From positions 1 through 44,778 of the forward strand of contig MHRY01000048.1 in assembly GCA_001822675.1 (NCBI GenBank): a DNA stretch of 44,778 bases, read 5' to 3'. The stretch comes from Candidatus Taylorbacteria bacterium RIFCSPLOWO2_01_FULL_45_34b (lineage in GTDB: Bacteria > Patescibacteriota > Minisyncoccia > Phycocordibacterales > DSPV01). A program made the translations under genes and the position numbers. Below, in pieces: positions 7,347-14,008 of the stretch. Position 1 is the first letter of the stretch. Each line of letters begins with the position of its first letter. The notes beneath the pieces were generated by a model. It was not told where the DNA came from and searched no databases. It was given only the letters and a program-made list of their open reading frames with translations.

Positions 7347-9134
7347 CTACACTCCCCTTTTGTCCATATACTCCTGCCACAATGTGGCCAGTTTAGGACA
7401 AGACCGGAGCAACTCGGCAAGCGTGCCAGATCCAATAATCCTTCCCTTTTCGAATACGTAAATACAATCGAAAAGTGCTAAAAGATGGAGCCGGTGAACC
7501 GAGGAGATGATGACCTTGCCTTCGAACCCTCTAAAGATGTTTCGGTAGATCTGCATCTCTGTTTTCATATCGACACTGCTCGTCGGCTCATCGAGAAGGA
7601 CGATGTCCTTGTCGTGGCATGTGAGCAGTCCACGTGAGAGCGCGAGACGTTGTTGCTGGCCCCCGCTCAAATTCACTCCCCGCTCTCTGATTGAGGAGTC
7701 AAACTTTTTTGGAAGCTTTTCGACGACATCAGTAAAACATGCCATATCGGTAAACCGCCGTATGAATGCCATGTCATAATCAGCACCGATTGTAATATTG
7801 TCCCTAATCGTCGTTGCGAAGATTTCTGGACTTTGCGGCACCAGCGCGATCGCTCGCGCGATACCTCTAAACCCTTCTTTAATTTCCTTACCGTCCACAA
7901 AGAGATTTCCTCTTCGAGGATGATAGAGATCTCGTATGAGTTTGAGTAGCGTCGTCTTGCCGTCGCCACTGTCCCCAACGAAAGCAATTTTTGCCCCGCG
8001 AGTGATAGAGAGCGAAATGTCAGTTAAATGCTGATCCCCGCTTCTATCGCTGTGGTACGAGAAATCTAAACCTTTTACCTCAAATGTTTTCCAACCAGAA
8101 GGAAGAACATGGTTTGTGAAGCTTTCGGGCTTGAAATCTTTTGCCAACTCCTCGGCATTCATCACCTTCGATTTATGTTGGAGAATCTCGCCATACATTT
8201 CTGTGAAGCGGAAAAATAACTGGCTAATTTTGTTTAGATACTGGATGAGAAGATAAACACTGCCCACGAGTACCCCTTGTGTTGTTCCCAAGTGTTGCCA
8301 GAAATAGATGCCCAAAACGAGCACCGTCATGACGTTACAACACATGTTGGTCAGAAACCATTTGAACTCATCGAGACGAATGTTCACCCGAAAGAGCTCG
8401 AGCGGCTTCTCAAGTTTGTGGACAATGGCTTTGAAGATCCGTTGCTCCACGCGCAAGATGATGACCGTCATGATGTTAGTAATCGAATCAAGCACTTTTT
8501 CTGAAATTTTATTTTCAGCGTGGTTGAGCTCCTTGTATTGACCTAACAGCACCCGATCGAATCGCATCGTTATCCATACCGTAACAAGAATCATGGCCGT
8601 GACAATAATCGCGGCTGGGGAACTGAAATAGACAAGCATCGCGAAGCTCCCGACAAGTTCTACAAAACAGTAGATGATCGTGAATGTGCCTTCCGAGAAG
8701 CGATATAAAGCACCCGCGCCTTTTTCCACTTTGTCATTGGTATCGCCCGAATGATGATCAACGTGCCATTCAACCGGCAGTGTCATGATGCCTTTAAGCA
8801 GATACTTTCGGTAATTGATCCGCGCCTTGAATGCGTTCATACGCTCCAAGATCCGCGCCGGACCGTGAAAAGACCAGAACACAAGATCAGTCACAAAGGT
8901 GAGGACGAGAAGTCCAAAAAGCGTTTTGAGACTACTGGCCATAATTCCCTGCTTCTGAATAACATCCATGATGTTCGCCCAGAGGATTGGTAAACAGAAA
9001 AGATCGATGAGACGGGCGACGATAAACATGACCACGAACCAGCCGATTTTTTTCCGATTACCCACCGAATACTCCCACATTTTAGCGAACAGGTAGAACA
9101 GCGGATTGCGCTTCTCTTTTTCATTAACTGGCAT
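7347..9134 (-). CDS. ABC exporter, fused permease and ATPase (MsbA/ABCB-like)
   Basis: 595 aa. N-terminal 6-TM domain, Walker A GDSGDGKTT, signature LSGGQQQR and Walker B IVLLDEPTS. Confidence 0.9.
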   Translation of the reverse strand: MPVNEKEKRNPLFYLFAKMWEYSVGNRKKIGWFVVMFIVARLIDLFCLPILWANIMDVIQKQGIMASSLKTLFGLLVLTFVTDLVFWSFHGPARILERMNAFKARINYRKYLLKGIMTLPVEWHVDHHSGDTNDKVEKGAGALYRFSEGTFTIIYCFVELVGSFAMLVYFSSPAAIIVTAMILVTVWITMRFDRVLLGQYKELNHAENKISEKVLDSITNIMTVIILRVEQRIFKAIVHKLEKPLELFRVNIRLDEFKWFLTNMCCNVMTVLVLGIYFWQHLGTTQGVLVGSVYLLIQYLNKISQLFFRFTEMYGEILQHKSKVMNAEELAKDFKPESFTNHVLPSGWKTFEVKGLDFSYHSDRSGDQHLTDISLSITRGAKIAFVGDSGDGKTTLLKLIRDLYHPRRGNLFVDGKEIKEGFRGIARAIALVPQSPEIFATTIRDNITIGADYDMAFIRRFTDMACFTDVVEKLPKKFDSSIRERGVNLSGGQQQRLALSRGLLTCHDKDIVLLDEPTSSVDMKTEMQIYRNIFRGFEGKVIISSVHRLHLLALFDCIYVFEKGRIIGSGTLAELLRSCPKLATLWQEYMDKRGV

Positions 9135-9190
9135 ACGGACTCCTTCTTTTCAGGGTTGTAGTTTAATTTGTGAAAGAACCAAAAAAACTA

Positions 9191-9216
9191 AAAACACCGC
9201 TTTTACGCGGTGTTTT
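9191..9216. terminator. Terminator-like hairpin
   Basis: AAAACACCGC-TTTTAC-GCGGTGTTTT sits in the ABC/typA divergent intergenic region. Confidence 0.5.
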
Positions 9217-9352
9217 AGATATTCAAACAAAATAGTTTAAATATACGGAACACAGCGTAACAAGACCTGCTTTGGAGCAAGGTTTGGCTTACTATTTGGT
9301 TTTGGGGGTGTATTTATCATTACAAACACAGACTAATTCGGGTTGATGAAAA

Positions 9353-9528
9353 AGTCAAATAATCGCTCGGATTCATTTTTTGAAATGTACGGATATTTTT
9401 CTGCTGAAAAATTCCTCGTGCTCGCGCCAGTCGCGCTCACAAGTCATTTCAAAAAAGAATCCTCGCTTAGAGGATAAGGAATTAGGGTTCTAAAGTCTTT
9501 CAAAATGAATCCGAGCGGCTATTTGACT
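9353..9528. repeat. MITE-like element or long stem: ~31-bp imperfect terminal inverted repeats around a ~113-bp core
   Basis: The left arm is AGTCAAATAATCGCTCGGATTCATTTTTTGAAA. The reverse complement of the right arm is AGTCAAATAGCCGCTCGGATTCATTTTGAAA (27 of 31 positions match). Confidence 0.5.
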
Positions 9529-9584
9529 TATCTATGTTTTTTTGTTTAAATAGAGTCACCTAGAGCTGCGGCTCTTTTTCATTT

Positions 9585-11384
9585 ATGGAATCGAAAGAAA
9601 TACGAAATATTGCAATAATTGCCCACGTTGACCACGGCAAAACGACCCTGACGGACGCGCTTATGCGCCAAACCGGCATGGTCACGGATACGTCAGTTAG
9701 CATGGATTCAAACGCGCTCGAGCAGGAGCGTGGTATTACCATATACGCCAAAAACGCTTCACTTTTTTGGAAAGGCACGAAAATCAATATTGTTGACACT
9801 CCAGGTCACGCGGACTTCGGTTCTGAAGTTGAACGGGTGCTCCGATCGATTGACACCGTTCTTCTTCTGGTTGACGCCCAAGAAGGTCCGATGCCCCAAA
9901 CCCGTTTCGTTCTTAAGAAATCACTGGAACTTGGACTGAAACCAATTGTCATCGTAAACAAAATTGATAAACCCGCCGCGCGACCAGACGAAGTCCATGA
10001 AGAAATTCTCGAGCTTTTTGTGGAGCTCGGCGCCTCAAACGACCAAATTGATTTCCATACCATCTACGCCATCAGCCGCAACGGCATTGCCAAACGAAAA
10101 TTAACGGACGAATCGAAAGATCTCTCGCCGCTTCTTGACGCTATTTTGGAATTGGTGCCGCCAGCTAAAGGCGACACCGCGCTCCCCTTCCGCATGCAAC
10201 CGTTCAATCTTGCGTATGATAATTTTCTCGGCCGCCTTGCCATCGGCCGCATGTACGAAGGCGTGCTCAAAATCGGCGCGAATGTTATCGTAAAAAAACC
10301 CGACGGTAGTTCGCATAAAGGCAAAATTACCAAACTCTACACCTTTGAAGGAATCAGCCGAAAAGAAGTCGAGGAAGTGCGAGCCGGAGACATCGTGATG
10401 ATTGCCGGACTACCGGATATTTACATCGGCGACACAGTTTGTGAAAAAGAAGATCAGCCGCCACTCCCCGCCATCGCCATTGATGAACCGACTATTTCGC
10501 TCAATTTCTTGGTTAATGATTCGCCGTTCGCTGGCCGGGAAGGAAAATTCGTTACGACTCGCCAAATCAAAGAACGACTCGAAAAAGAACTCGAAGTCAA
10601 CGTCGGTTTGAAAGTTGATTTCTCGGGCAGTGATTCATACAAAGTGTTCGGCCGCGGCGAACTCCATATCTCCATCCTGCTTGAAAACATGCGCCGTGAG
10701 GGTTATGAACTGCAAGTCTCCCAACCACAAGTCATCATAAAAGAAATTGACGGCCAAAAAATGGAGCCGTACGAAGAGACTATTGTGGACGTGCCAAGCG
10801 TTTCCGCTGGCGACGTTATTAAAAAACTGGGATCGAGACGCGGCATTCTTATGTCCCAGAAAGATCACGAAAATCAAACGCGGCTCATTTTCGAAATCCC
10901 GACTCGCGGCCTGTTGGGTTATCGGGGTGAATTCGTTATTAACACTAAAGGCGAAGGCATTTTGTCATCTCGTTTTATAGAATTCCGCGCATGGGCTGGC
11001 GAAATTAGAAAGCATGCGTTTGGCTCCATGATTTCCATGGAAAATGGCACGGCACTCGCCTACTCGCTGTTCAACCTGCAAGAACGCGGCACCATTTATA
11101 TTGATCCCGCCATTCCCGTCTACGAAGGTATGATTCTTGGAAATACTTCAAAAGGGGAGGACTTGGACGTAAACCCAACTAAAAACAAACTTTTGACTAA
11201 TTACCGAAACACCAATACCGGCGATGCTATTATGCTCATTCCGCCGTTTCGACTCACGATCGAACGTGGTTTGGAAATTATGAAAGAAGACGAATATTTG
11301 GAAATCACGCCAAAATCAGTCCGGCTTCGGAAACAATTCCTCTCCAAAACTGATCGAGCGCGAAATTCTCGAAAATCATCCTAG
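9585..11384 (+). CDS. typA: Translational GTPase TypA/BipA
   Basis: 599 aa. G1 AHVDHGKTT, G3 DTPGHADF and G4 NKID motifs, with the TypA-type C-terminal domain architecture. Confidence 0.95.
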   Translation: MESKEIRNIAIIAHVDHGKTTLTDALMRQTGMVTDTSVSMDSNALEQERGITIYAKNASLFWKGTKINIVDTPGHADFGSEVERVLRSIDTVLLLVDAQEGPMPQTRFVLKKSLELGLKPIVIVNKIDKPAARPDEVHEEILELFVELGASNDQIDFHTIYAISRNGIAKRKLTDESKDLSPLLDAILELVPPAKGDTALPFRMQPFNLAYDNFLGRLAIGRMYEGVLKIGANVIVKKPDGSSHKGKITKLYTFEGISRKEVEEVRAGDIVMIAGLPDIYIGDTVCEKEDQPPLPAIAIDEPTISLNFLVNDSPFAGREGKFVTTRQIKERLEKELEVNVGLKVDFSGSDSYKVFGRGELHISILLENMRREGYELQVSQPQVIIKEIDGQKMEPYEETIVDVPSVSAGDVIKKLGSRRGILMSQKDHENQTRLIFEIPTRGLLGYRGEFVINTKGEGILSSRFIEFRAWAGEIRKHAFGSMISMENGTALAYSLFNLQERGTIYIDPAIPVYEGMILGNTSKGEDLDVNPTKNKLLTNYRNTNTGDAIMLIPPFRLTIERGLEIMKEDEYLEITPKSVRLRKQFLSKTDRARNSRKSS

Positions 11385-11391
11385 CTCCACA

Positions 11392-11431
11392 AATTTAGCA
11401 AATACCAGTGATAGCAAGCATATGCTAAATT
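11392..11431 (+). repeat. Conserved-loop hairpin, copy 2 (AATTTAGCA-22 nt-TGCTAAATT)
   Basis: It lies 8 nt after the typA stop. See the match to 1219..1260. Confidence 0.6.
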
Positions 11432-11527
11432 TTAATTTCTAGATTTTTAAAAAATCATACACAACAATTATTTACGGTCGGAGTGGATTGTTGTGGTGTG
11501 TGAAAAAAGAAATAAAGATTGAATGAG

Positions 11528-12087
11528 AAAAAAGCCTCGTCCTCGAGCAGACTCGGGACGGGGCAAGGTGGTAATGAACTGTTTCACCTTAATAGGAACC
11601 TCTCTCACCAAAATTCCTCTTCAGAAATGAGAAATTCATTCCAACATCTGAAAAAGAGGGTATGGTGTGTGGACATCTCAAGTTGATCTGATCATCTCCA
11701 TACCCTCTCGAGTCAACCGAAGCTGACTCAAAGCGTTTGTCTGTAGAGGTCTGACCTCTACAGATTTGAAAGAGCTACGGGTGGGGTGAAAAAACTTCCA
11801 AATATGGTTCTCATTTCTCCCCGCCCGTTTTCCTGTCTCTGTTAGACAAAGACAAGAAAGTGACAGCAGCAGAAGACTAGCGAGAAAGCTTCCAAAACTG
11901 AGGAAGCTTATAGCTTCTGGGACGGAAAAGTGTCCTCCGCCTAAGGCGGAGGAAGTGTGAGTTAGTGGTAATTTCAAGTTAATTGACAATATCTCTCACA
12001 CAAAATCGTGGTGGGTAATGGACTTACTCAGTTTAATCGAGCTTCTCTCCCACCACTCCCCCGTCTTAAACGGGAGAAAAATCGTCT
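11528..12087 (-). ncRNA. Unclassified large structured RNA, paralog 3 of 3 (about 560 nt)
   Basis: On the minus strand: promoter TTGACC (12117..12122)-17-TAAGTT (12094..12099) and terminator CCCCGTCCCGAG-TCTG-CTCGAGGACGAGG plus T6 (11528..11568). Blocks shared with paralog 1 are 11951..11965 = 1515..1529 (15 of 15), 11743..11772 ~ 1795..1824, 11698..11729 ~ 1847..1879 and 11611..11627 = 1950..1966. Confidence 0.7.
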
Positions 12088-12122
12088 GGCTAAAACTTAC
12101 CACGTCAATTGATTAAGGTCAA

Positions 12123-12158
12123 CAAAACCCTTCTCGACAAAAGTCGAGAAGGGTTTTG
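12123..12158. terminator. Bidirectional intrinsic terminator
   Basis: CAAAACCCTTCTCGAC-AAAA-GTCGAGAAGGGTTTTG is a perfect 16-bp stem downstream of the RRM gene. Confidence 0.8.
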
Positions 12159-12208
12159 TTCGTGACTTTTAATTCCAGAATCTACATTCTAGAATCTAAA
12201 ATCTACTT

Positions 12209-12517
12209 TTAGAAACTTCTTCGGTCACTGCCACCTCGATCGAAACCACCGTTTCGTCTTGGAGGTCGCTCGGCCATCGGCCGTGCTTCGTTGACGGTAA
12301 TTTTCCGTCCTTCGATCTCTTTGCCGTTTAGAGTTTCCACTGCCTTATCAGCATCTGCATCTTCCATTTCCACGAAACCAAAGCCTCGTGAACGACCGTT
12401 CATTTTATCCAAAAGAACGTTTGCGGAGATAACAGCGCCAACACCGGCAAAAATGTCTTTCAGACCATCAGAGGTGGTGCTGTAAGACAAATTTCCAACA
12501 TACAATTTCTTTGCCAT
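12209..12517 (-). CDS. RRM-type RNA-binding protein with an RG-rich tail
   Basis: RNP-2 LYVGNL and RNP-1 RGFGFVEM. The start is chosen at MAKKLYVGNL (12517) rather than the longer ORF reaching 12583. Confidence 0.9.
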   Translation of the reverse strand: MAKKLYVGNLSYSTTSDGLKDIFAGVGAVISANVLLDKMNGRSRGFGFVEMEDADADKAVETLNGKEIEGRKITVNEARPMAERPPRRNGGFDRGGSDRRSF

Positions 12518-12691
12518 ATTGAGATACGCTAACTTACTAAATCCCGACCTCGTCTCAATATGGCTGACGCGAAACGCAATCAAAAACCTCTTGAGAAAAC
12601 GAATGGCACTAGCATACAGGATGCCACGGAAGTGTCAAGGGGACTACGTCGCTGTTTGTTAAAAGTAAGGTTTTTGGCTACAATATTAGCA

Positions 12692-14008
12692 ATGAGTGAA
12701 GAAAAGAAACAAAAACTCTCTACGGATTCCTACAAGGGCGTCAGGGACTTCTATCCGGCGGATATGGCCATCCAAAACTATATTTTCGGCGTGATTAAAA
12801 AAGTAGTCGAAAGCTATGGCTACCTTGAATATAGTGCCTCTATACTGGAATCAGCCGATCTCTACAAAGCAAAAACTGGCGAAGAAATTGTGAATGAACA
12901 AACCTACACCTTCACTGATCGAGGTGGGCGCGAGGTGACGCTTCGGCCAGAAATGACGCCGACGGTCGCCCGCATGGTAGCCAAAAATCAAAAAGCTCTT
13001 CTCTTCCCGCTTCGTTGGTATTCAATCCCCAATCTCTTTCGCTATGAACAGCCACAGCGAGGCCGGCTTCGCGAACACTGGCAACTGAACGCCGACATTT
13101 TTGGTGAGAAAAGCCTTCACGCTGAAGTGGAAATTATTTCGCTTGCTTCGAGCATCATGCGAGCGTTTGGCGTCAAAGACAATCAATTTGAAATCCGAAT
13201 AAACAGTCGAAAAATCATAAACTACATTTTTGGGGAGCTTTTTGCTTTTCCCGAAGAGACGCGCTCCGAGTTAGCAAAACTCATTGATAAAAAAGAGAAG
13301 ATGGGGGCGGCAGTTTTTAAAGCCGCTTTAAAAACTGCCGCCGGAGAAAAAACCGACAAACTTCTCACCCTTCTCAACTCCAAAAACTTCGAGGAATTCG
13401 CGAAATCGCTCGGCGAAACTGCAGGCGAAAAAGCTGGCATGGACGAAATCAAAACGGTCATCGCTTCACTTGAAAAACTCGGTATTACGAACGTGGTATT
13501 CGACCAGACCTTGATGCGCGGCTTCGATTACTACACTGGCGTCGTGTTTGAAATATTCGATCAAAACCCTGACAACCGCCGCTCACTTTTCGGCGGTGGC
13601 CGGTATGACGATCTCCTTGAAATTTTCGGCAAAGAAAAAGTGCCGGCGGTGGGCTTTGGCATGGGAGATGTGACAATCCGCGATGTTTTGGAGACCTACA
13701 GCCTCCTACCCTCACCCACTTCAAAAATTAAGCTGGCGCTCTGCACCATCGACGAAAACGGCATTGGCTATGCCGAGGAAGTGGCGCAAGAACTCCGCGC
13801 GCAAGACATTTCAGTTATCGTGAACTATTCTGACAAGAAAGTGGGGGATCAAATTAAAAGCGTGGTTCGTCAATCAATCCCCTATGTCATTTGTATTGGT
13901 TCTGATGAAATAAAAAGCGGGAAATTAAAACTAAAAGAACTCGCGAGTGGCAAAGAAACAGAATTGGAATCTTCAAATGTAGCGATGCACATCAAGAATC
14001 AGAAATAG
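12692..14008 (+). CDS. hisS: Histidine--tRNA ligase
   Basis: Class II aaRS motifs (..LRPEMTP.., ..FRYE.PQ.GR.REF/HWQ.., ..GGGRYD..). The start is at MSEEKKQK (12692); the upstream 44 codons do not resemble HisRS. Confidence 0.9.
   Translation: MSEEKKQKLSTDSYKGVRDFYPADMAIQNYIFGVIKKVVESYGYLEYSASILESADLYKAKTGEEIVNEQTYTFTDRGGREVTLRPEMTPTVARMVAKNQKALLFPLRWYSIPNLFRYEQPQRGRLREHWQLNADIFGEKSLHAEVEIISLASSIMRAFGVKDNQFEIRINSRKIINYIFGELFAFPEETRSELAKLIDKKEKMGAAVFKAALKTAAGEKTDKLLTLLNSKNFEEFAKSLGETAGEKAGMDEIKTVIASLEKLGITNVVFDQTLMRGFDYYTGVVFEIFDQNPDNRRSLFGGGRYDDLLEIFGKEKVPAVGFGMGDVTIRDVLETYSLLPSPTSKIKLALCTIDENGIGYAEEVAQELRAQDISVIVNYSDKKVGDQIKSVVRQSIPYVICIGSDEIKSGKLKLKELASGKETELESSNVAMHIKNQK

Follow-up and report, generated by a model that had tools for sequence, protein, structure and literature searches.

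The minus-strand element at positions 11528-12122 of contig MHRY01000048.1 from Candidatus Taylorbacteria bacterium RIFCSPLOWO2_01_FULL_45_34b (44,778 nt, the whole stretch being called the window here) is a highly structured non-coding unit that extends from a promoter to a terminator. Judged from its sequence, it is most probably one of three stem-loop TIGR arrays in the window, and its five hairpin units would be carried on a precursor RNA that begins at a dedicated promoter and stops at an intrinsic terminator; the probability of this reading is put at about 0.85. By analogy with the characterized systems, it most likely gives rise to guide RNAs with two spacers each, used by a TasR protein that is nuclease-dead and binds DNA. 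No new RNA class is involved: the element adds one more case to a system that was first reported in 2025. What makes it moderately new is the dispersed position of the arrays, away from tas, and a conserved scaffold that holds randomised spacers. Direct observations are the unit architecture and its specificity for the loci described here, the homology and linkage to other arrays and to TasR-like genes, and the presence of a TasR-like gene in the same genome.

TIGR-Tas systems were described by Faure et al. (Science 2025, PMC12045711) with dual-repeat arrays and with 'stem-loop arrays' of tandem hairpins that have variable palindromic stems. In the stem-loop arrays, a unit has two spacers of 8-12 nt, each between a box C-like and a box D-like motif; this pattern occurs twice in the loop with a linker between, and the last unit is followed by a terminator. 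The same paper associates such arrays with a TasR clade from the Candidate Phyla Radiation (CPR) whose RuvC is inactive. The structure of a CPR protein, CsTasR (547 aa), was determined by cryo-electron microscopy (Xu et al., bioRxiv 2026, 10.64898/2026.09.09.750476). R8 and V126 replace its catalytic residues, each spacer pairs over 9 nt, the target is 18 bp of double-stranded DNA (dsDNA), and transcription is repressed under RNA guidance with no cleavage. A CUU motif was reported at the processing sites and arrays were catalogued around tas genes, with natural targets and spacer acquisition given as unknown.

The repeated hairpin unit

The element, called array 3 here, has two paralogues in the window, arrays 1 and 2, both on the plus strand (see the table). 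Each of the three is built from successive hairpin units, roughly 45 nt in length, in which one pattern occurs twice: stem, AGA, 9 variable nt, UUA(A), short linker, UGA, 9 variable nt, UnA, stem. A stem of 6-9 bp closes a loop of about 33 nt, the linker between the half-patterns is 2-4 nt long, and two hypervariable 9-nt segments, designated spacers A and B, sit between fixed trinucleotide boxes in each unit. MAFFT alone aligns 27 units, almost gap-free, to GGTGGGAGA-N9-TTAA-NN-TGA-N9-TnA-CCCACC. Over 50 units, the columns of the first half carry 1.2, 2.0 and 2.0 bits for AGA, 0-0.4 bits for spacer A, and 1.3, 0.7, 0.9 and 0.7 bits for UUAA; those of the second half carry 1.2, 1.35 and 1.6 bits for UGA, 0-0.24 bits for spacer B, and 1.55, 0.36 and 1.29 bits for U-n-A. 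By analogy, AGA and UGA may be called box C-like, and U(U)A and U(n)A box D-like. When positionally equivalent units were compared across arrays and organisms, stems were 89% and boxes 79% identical, while the 9-nt segments were 28-30% identical, with 26% at random.

The 6-bp closing stem is paired in 96.9% of cells, a percentage that is partly by construction as the unit alignments were selected and fitted for this stem. All six of its pairs have two-sided changes, and its covariation score is 0.76 vs 0.21 in shuffled alignments; independent support comes from the three-sequence alignment described below. Two more pairs could form inside the loop, A9/U38 and U19/A28, with the bases present in 43 of 46 and 39 of 50 units, respectively, but being near-invariant they are uninformative.

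A covariance model of the unit, R1, which has none of the loci L218-L226 in its seed, matches 15 units in the three window arrays (seven, three, and five), and a degenerate unit of array 2 is additional. No convincing unit was found by R1 elsewhere in the window. The control set of 764 kb (L001-L050) gave two weak matches only, of at most 20.9 bits. The sole control match above 20 bits, L024:96-141(+) (20.9 bits, E = 0.12), lies right where a stretch of CPR contig begins, and it could be the edge of another array. Of the 15 window units, 9 have a CUU no more than about 10 nt from the 3' base of the stem; for all units together, the figure is 17 of 41.

Predicted folding of the arrays has z-scores of minimum free energy (MFE) against shuffled sequence of -9.1 for array 3, -10.9 for array 1, and -10.5 for array 2. 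An earlier note on this DNA had claimed that helices of the element change on both strands at once when it is compared to array 1. In an alignment of array 3, array 1, and a homologue from another organism (L210), the eight local helices amount to 80 pairs, of whose cells 95.3% are paired. Changes on both sides occur in twelve pairs, against 4.4 +/- 1.6 in shuffles (0 of 500 reach 12) and 1-2 in slid controls, and so the hairpin stems are indeed kept by compensatory change. As the alignment has only three members and the structure was itself derived from them, these changes are supportive and not a formal test. All four helix changes quoted in the note are visible: GTGGCGGG/CCCGCCAC is changed to GTGGTGGG/CCCACCAC, two further changes are those of the GAGGTCAGACCTC hairpin and of the GAGTCAGC hairpin, and CTC-GCAA-GAG is changed to CTCCCGT-TTAA-GACGGGGGA. 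The assignment to a non-coding RNA gene family, and neither to a coding region nor to a simple repeat, was also borne out.

The sequence blocks that the note had described as identical and single-stranded are all present at the places it gives. One of them, CTAACTCACACTTCC, is exact in array 1 (1515-1529+) and array 3 (11951-11965-, in unit 3b), with a chance expectation of 0.01; another, TTTCTGAAGAGGAATTT, is exact in arrays 1 and 3 and has 2 mismatches in array 2, with a chance expectation of 0.02. The identity stands, but CTAACTCACACTTCC is not unpaired, as most of it is the 3' half of a stem in which CTCACAC pairs with GTGTGAG.

Other assignments of the unit were tried and abandoned. The kink-turn (K-turn) was dropped for lack of a 3' GA. 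A UAA/GAN internal loop, a T-loop, and a T-box-like tRNA-elbow platform were set aside, as the interior pairing is inconsistent and the two-fold box pattern explains the conservation better. A CsrA-type GGA sponge and a miniature inverted-repeat transposable element or repetitive extragenic palindromic repeat were considered and dropped, too. Small open reading frames (ORFs) inside the arrays were rejected because their frames are not conserved between copies, and a CRISPR array because the stems differ from unit to unit and there are two 9-nt variable segments per unit.

TasR-like genes linked to the units

Among loci with DUF2914 homologues, two more arrays were found in a third organism (L215:~4190-5010 and ~6940-7430), and nhmmer comparison of window arrays 1 and 3 with them gave E = 4.6e-11 and 1.4-1.6e-7; no array was found at the DUF2914-homologue loci L214 and L216. 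The two arrays of L215 flank an ORF of 541 aa without Pfam match, which by phmmer is similar to PDB entry 9MTY_A (E = 2.5e-5). The AlphaFold2 model of this protein has a mean predicted local distance difference test score of 67. Its best PDB match is 9MTY, TIGR-TasR with tigRNA and target DNA (E = 1.2e-7), followed by IS621/IS110 recombinases and TasH. Homologues of 533-547 aa were found in CPR, one of them from a metagenome-assembled genome (MAG) of Taylorbacteria. R1 matches units on the tas strand next to TasR-like genes at L215, and units of the same architecture, also matched by R1, precede or follow such genes on the same strand at L218/L220, L222/L223, L224, and L226. Linkage of the unit to TasR-like genes is present in six lineages, including the window genome.

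No TasR homologue was found inside the window. The window is part of an 88.8-kb scaffold from Rifle groundwater (ANAN16-1 scaffold_687), and on this scaffold extended upstream (L227), a gene at <1-1303(+) matches the family profile with E = 3e-179 and is 47-53% identical to the members. Its stop codon is located 5.3 kb before window position 1, and the distance from this gene is 6.6 kb to array 1, 12 kb to array 2, and about 17 kb to array 3, which is on the other strand. The gene matches the protein P0130 (573 aa), from which it is one residue apart over 433 compared. P0130 is similar to 9MTY_A by sequence (E = 9.4e-5), and its N-terminus ...AGRLIAF (GRL being residues 8-10) has Arg where the first Asp of RuvC is expected. 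R8 is invariant in nine TasR-like homologues and matches R8 of CsTasR. The RuvC-like domain of the TasR of the window genome appears to be dead, as read from this Arg at the first catalytic position. P0131, with 517 aa, is a shorter variant of P0130 that lacks the IKGFGP helix-hairpin-helix region through internal deletions, and it may stem from the assembly or from variation in the population.

Immediately 3' of the tasR-like gene of L227, there are a lone unit and a terminator (~1325-1425), and then a short array. A single unit and then a terminator lie directly 3' of the tasR-like stop codon in three lineages (L215:6763-6830, L218:11653-11698, and L227:~1325-1425), and the lone unit in the 3' untranslated region of tasR looks conserved. 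Downstream of one tasR-like gene, at L222:11677-20220 and L223:4477-13020, there is a run of nine co-oriented genes without Pfam match, coding for 557, 219, 557, 242, 182, 177, 280, 229, and 312 aa. This run may be a mobile or viral module.

Competing explanations and proposed function

Guides of box C/D sRNA type, directed to the modification of rRNA or tRNA and not to the binding of DNA, are very unlikely, even if the layout of the units is the same (box-guide-box-linker-box-guide-box in a terminal stem, as in archaeal and eukaryotic box C/D s(no)RNAs) and the protein partner has a Nop-like domain. RNA modification was floated for the CPR TasR clade by Faure et al., and this clade was proposed in their 2025 discussion as a possible intermediate (PMC12045711). 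A K-turn cannot form in the units because the 3' boxes are U-n-A, with no GA for tandem sheared pairs; K-turn-forming boxes C (RUGAUGA) and D (CUGA) are missing, the guides have 9 nt against 10-12 nt, and the target is likely DNA. No fibrillarin, L7Ae, or Nop5 family was recognized among the window ORFs scanned, and CsTasR binds 18-bp dsDNA and represses transcription (10.64898/2026.09.09.750476). The earlier note had presented the element as one large structured RNA. Such an RNA, which in the manner of OLE, GOLLD, or ROOL would fold as a whole and act as one particle, is highly unlikely. The very strong MFE z-scores of -9 to -11, the compensatory changes, and the order of hairpins and several linker sequences conserved between the paralogues and with L210 speak for it. 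However, no long-range helix is supported, the two proposed by RNAalifold being G-U-rich with no clear compensation, and the number of units varies between the arrays (7, 3-4, and 5); what is conserved is the hairpin unit of about 45 nt. The unit also occurs singly, with a terminator, 3' of tasR genes (L215:6763-6806, L218:11653-11698), no Rfam match is obtained even at E <= 5, and the loop segments are randomised next to stems that are 89% identical, which is the opposite of conservation of a tertiary fold. Nothing in the sequences indicates a global fold.

That the RNA soaks up an RNA-binding protein, for instance the neighbouring RRM protein, as a decoy or sponge with many sites is extremely unlikely. 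Array 3 is directly downstream of the RRM gene (12209-12517-) and has many repeated hairpins with purine-rich motifs, but a rho-independent terminator and a separate promoter lie between this gene and the array, and the adjacency is not conserved, with other neighbours at arrays 1 and 2 and at the L210 and L215 arrays. The recurrent partner is TasR. The earlier note had pointed to typA, the RRM protein, and an ECF sigma factor as genes that might recur beside the element in related genomes; they do not, because none of the 29 CPR-like typA loci (L001-L029) among 80 fetched holds a copy, as searched by nhmmer and by unit clusters, and it is the TasR-like gene that recurs. A recently duplicated mobile element with identical flanks, also considered in the note, was not what was found.

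The arrays of the window are like the stem-loop TIGR arrays of CPR in the tandem hairpins with variable palindromic stems, the two spacers of about 9 nt with boxes before and after each, the loop of about 9 nt between the spacers, the terminator at the array end, and the CPR host. The partner is like that of the CPR TasR systems in its size (533-573 aa), in the Arg at the first catalytic position of its RuvC-like domain, which may be dead, and in an IS110/Nop-like C-terminal domain. Several points weigh against the identification as a stem-loop TIGR array. The boxes are GA and U-A here, while CCA/UG is published for TaTasR and CUU/UG for PateTasR; the spacers are separated by a loop of 9-10 nt, while CsTasR tigRNAs have a 5-bp stem in this place; and no more than 9 of the 15 window units have the CUU processing motif nearby. 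Published arrays adjoin tas or lie inside it, whereas these arrays are 6.6-17 kb away from tasR with housekeeping genes between, have a promoter and a terminator each, and include one on the opposite strand. The published description has nothing like the long and conserved linkers seen here, which have ordinary hairpins but no units, and the scaffold common to paralogous arrays and to other organisms is a further difference. The pairing percentages of the unit alignments are in part built in, as noted above. Finally, no DNA target for any spacer pair was found in the 45-kb window, where a tandem self-target search gave one non-self match with 2 mismatches, with 0-2 matches for shuffled spacers.

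Dual-repeat TIGR arrays (TaTasR and SpTasH, with 36-nt tigRNAs) share the dual-spacer logic, box C before and box D after the 9-nt spacers, and the terminator. In contrast to them, there are no constant edge and loop repeats here; individual stems close the units and linkers separate them. The partner would, from its sequence, be without the nuclease activity of the dual-repeat partners and, according to the preprint, without their Y/H processing loop. The bridge RNA of IS110/IS621 has a structurally related partner protein and split guide segments in internal loops of hairpins, but it is a single two-loop RNA and not an array of many units; here, there is no transposon context and probably no active DEDD/RuvC site. 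As in CRISPR arrays, variable guides lie between conserved parts of a multi-guide precursor transcript; unlike in CRISPR arrays, identical direct repeats are missing, short spacers come in pairs within a unit, and there is no sign of polarised spacer addition. No cas family was identified among the window ORFs scanned.

For the stem-loop TIGR array, a mechanism can be proposed after the findings of Faure et al. and Xu et al. on CsTasR and TaTasR. Cuts in the linkers would release single hairpin guides from a precursor transcript of about 570 nt. One unit would be held by a TasR dimer, with the Nop-like C-terminal domain gripping the box motifs, and spacers A and B would pair with opposite strands of an 18-bp DNA site. 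If the RuvC-like domain is dead, as its Arg at the first catalytic position suggests, the complex would bind DNA and block transcription with no cutting.

It is possible, if rather doubtful, that CPR genomes carry tas-distal tigRNA arrays which are independently transcribed among housekeeping genes and which are paralogous copies of a fixed scaffold with every 9-nt spacer replaced. If so, spacers would turn over in place inside existing units and not by addition of units, and TasR with dead RuvC would draw on guides dispersed over the chromosome and form with them an RNA-guided repressor regulon, which acts on genes of the bacterium itself, on its host, or on its phages. Replacement in place is suggested because the scaffold (order of units, stems, and linkers) is common to paralogues and organisms while the spacers are randomised; unconstrained drift of the loops would give the same identities. 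The conserved scaffold together with random-level spacer identity across paralogues and organisms is a data set for asking how spacers get replaced.

The identification as TIGR arrays also explains three gene-free structured regions of 0.5-0.8 kb in a small CPR genome that gene callers leave empty or fill with spurious ORFs. A complete TIGR-Tas system would be present on one scaffold in a chromosomal, non-viral context, with the tasR gene, tas-proximal units, and three distal arrays. With arrays 6.6-17 kb from tas, searches centred on tas may undercount guides. At least 16 guides from one genome make a search for 18-bp targets possible, in the whole MAG and in co-occurring host and phage genomes.

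Limits of the arrays, relatives, and neighbouring elements

The minus-strand promoter sequence claimed in the earlier note is present, with TTGACC at 12122-12117, a spacer of 17 nt, and TAAGTT at 12099-12094, and the T6 run is present at 11533-11528 after an imperfect G+C-rich hairpin at 11564-11534. The promoter of array 3 was not called by the consensus scanner because its -10 hexamer matches at only 3 of 6 positions, and its terminator, with an imperfect stem, was likewise not called. A terminator hairpin and T run can be read in all three arrays, and the scanner calls that of array 2 only. In the L210 homologue, TTGACC-18-TAATGT lies at the relative place equivalent to the array 3 promoter. 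The start of array 1 assumed in the note had to be corrected, as the promoter-like TTGACT-17-TAGTTT at 1260-1288 and one more unit, at 1311-1355, place the start further upstream.

Inside array 3, the leader hairpin has counterparts in CUC-GCAA-GAG of arrays 1 and 2 and in CUCCAGC-UUCG-GCGGGGGA of L210. The stem of unit 3a covaries with array 1, and the place of the unit-free linker that follows unit 3b is taken by units c and d in array 1. The stem of unit 3e is changed to GGGGUGUGG/CCACACCCC in L210, with two compensatory pairs, and the linker hairpin UUCAGA...UCUGAA is compensated as CCAGAA/UUCUGG in array 2.

Features of array 3 and of its two paralogues, in window positions
Feature	Position	Strand	Basis
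Promoter-like TTGACC-17-TAAGTT of array 3	12094..12122	-	read directly
Leader hairpin CUCCCGU-UUAA-GACGGGGGA	12057..12077	-	sequence and predicted fold
Unit 3a: stem GUGGUGGG/CCCACCAC; AGA GAAGCUCGA UUA AAC UGA GUAAGUCCA UUA	12008..12056	-	R1, 43.3 bits, E = 3e-8
Unit 3b: stem GUGUGAG/CUCACAC; AGA UAUUGUCAA UUA ACU UGA AAUUACCAC UAA	11955..12001	-	R1, 40.9 bits
Unit-free linker, three ordinary hairpins (CCUCCGCC-UUA-GGCGGAGG and others)	11826..11952	-	no unit by R1
Unit 3c, boxes degenerate	11781..11824	-	R1, 27.9 bits
Conserved linker: CUUUCAAAUC, hairpin CUGUAGAGG-UCAGA-CCUCUACAG, hairpin GAGUCAGC-UUCG-GUUGACUC	11710..11780	-	pattern matches 3/3 copies
Unit 3e: stem AGGGUAUGG/CCAUACCCU; AGA UGAUCAGAU CAA CU UGA GAUGUCCAC ACA	11657..11706	-	R1, 33.4 bits
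Linker hairpin UUCAGA...UCUGAA, then conserved GAGGAAUUU	11610..11656	-	read directly
Unit 3f: AGA GAGGUUCCUA UUA AGG UGA AACAGUUCA UUA	11567..11609	-	R1, 23.4 bits
Intrinsic-terminator-like hairpin and T6	11528..11564	-	sequence and fold; equivalent in array 2 called by scanner
Array 1: promoter-like TTGACT-17-TAGTTT, seven units, terminator	1260..2048	+	R1, 27.7-37.6 bits
Array 1 units	1311-1355, 1426-1469, 1480-1524, 1586-1629, 1648-1692, 1873-1918, 1967-2011	+	R1
Array 2: promoter-like TTGACT-17-AATTAT, units, terminator 7139-7174	6686..7174	+	R1 and scanner
Array 2 units	6732-6775, 6844-6888, 7092-7136	+	R1
Array 2 degenerate unit	6897-6941	+	identified by eye only

ORFs 1503-2093(+) and 11678-11989(-) lie inside arrays, with frames that differ between the copies. 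Public gene calls place proteins of 196 aa on array 1 (window 1503-2093(+) = L227:8128-8718) and of 120 aa on the tas-proximal array (L227:1444-1806(-)), both without Pfam match, and these calls look spurious. In other places, no gene is called on the arrays, and gaps of about 0.8 kb result.

TypA (9585-11384+) is closest to proteins of Patescibacteria/CPR MAGs, with 81-64% identity. Contigs of the same species from other samples are 99.94-100% identical, so population variation is too low to be useful. No Rfam family was recognized on any copy at the gathering score, no relevant match was obtained at E <= 5 over window 1-13000, and covariance models of OLE, GOLLD, HEARO, ROOL, raiA, and other large non-coding RNAs of Rfam 15 did not match the copies. 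The RNA pattern TTCTGRARAGGAATTT...GKGRGRGA had 0 matches in GTDB species genomes, and the species is therefore not represented there. Array 3 had no blastn match among phage records. When viral contigs were scanned with a 17-mer, chance matches saturated the result (at least 120 rows; about 1-2 chance matches are expected per 18-mer), and short patterns are useless on viral contigs for this reason.

The degenerate linker pattern CTTNNAAANNNNTNGANGTCAGACNTCNA, conserved in all three copies, identified one diverged homologue in a metagenome collection, L210:11487-12005, from the other organism mentioned above. No tas gene was found in the 12.3 kb of L210 around its array. By blastn, L210:11735-12171 is similar to window 1786-2181 and 11606-11790 (E < 1e-20, 66-74% identity), covering the array and a downstream element only, and the window protein-coding genes that were compared have no similarity to L210 at this threshold. 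This non-coding block is either more constrained than the genes or was transferred.

This downstream element, about 110 nt long, is likewise conserved and non-coding and is located at window 2075-2185(+), at window ~9358-9487 in the opposite orientation, and at L210:12055-12175. It is directly downstream of array 1 and of the L210 array. In order, it consists of CCUCUAAGCGAG, a long A/U-rich stem that encloses two small hairpins, and, after the second strand of this stem, UUCGAGCG. Of the 39 pairs predicted over the three copies, 13 have two-sided changes, and there is no Rfam match to the element. An ORF of 43 aa was called on its second copy, in a frame that is not conserved.

The only Rfam match in the window is a group I intron at 92-375(-), with 84 bits. 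No tRNA was found as its host by ARAGORN and no rRNA by Rfam. An ORF of 181 aa at 225-770(-) runs from upstream into the intron and has a weak HNH match only.

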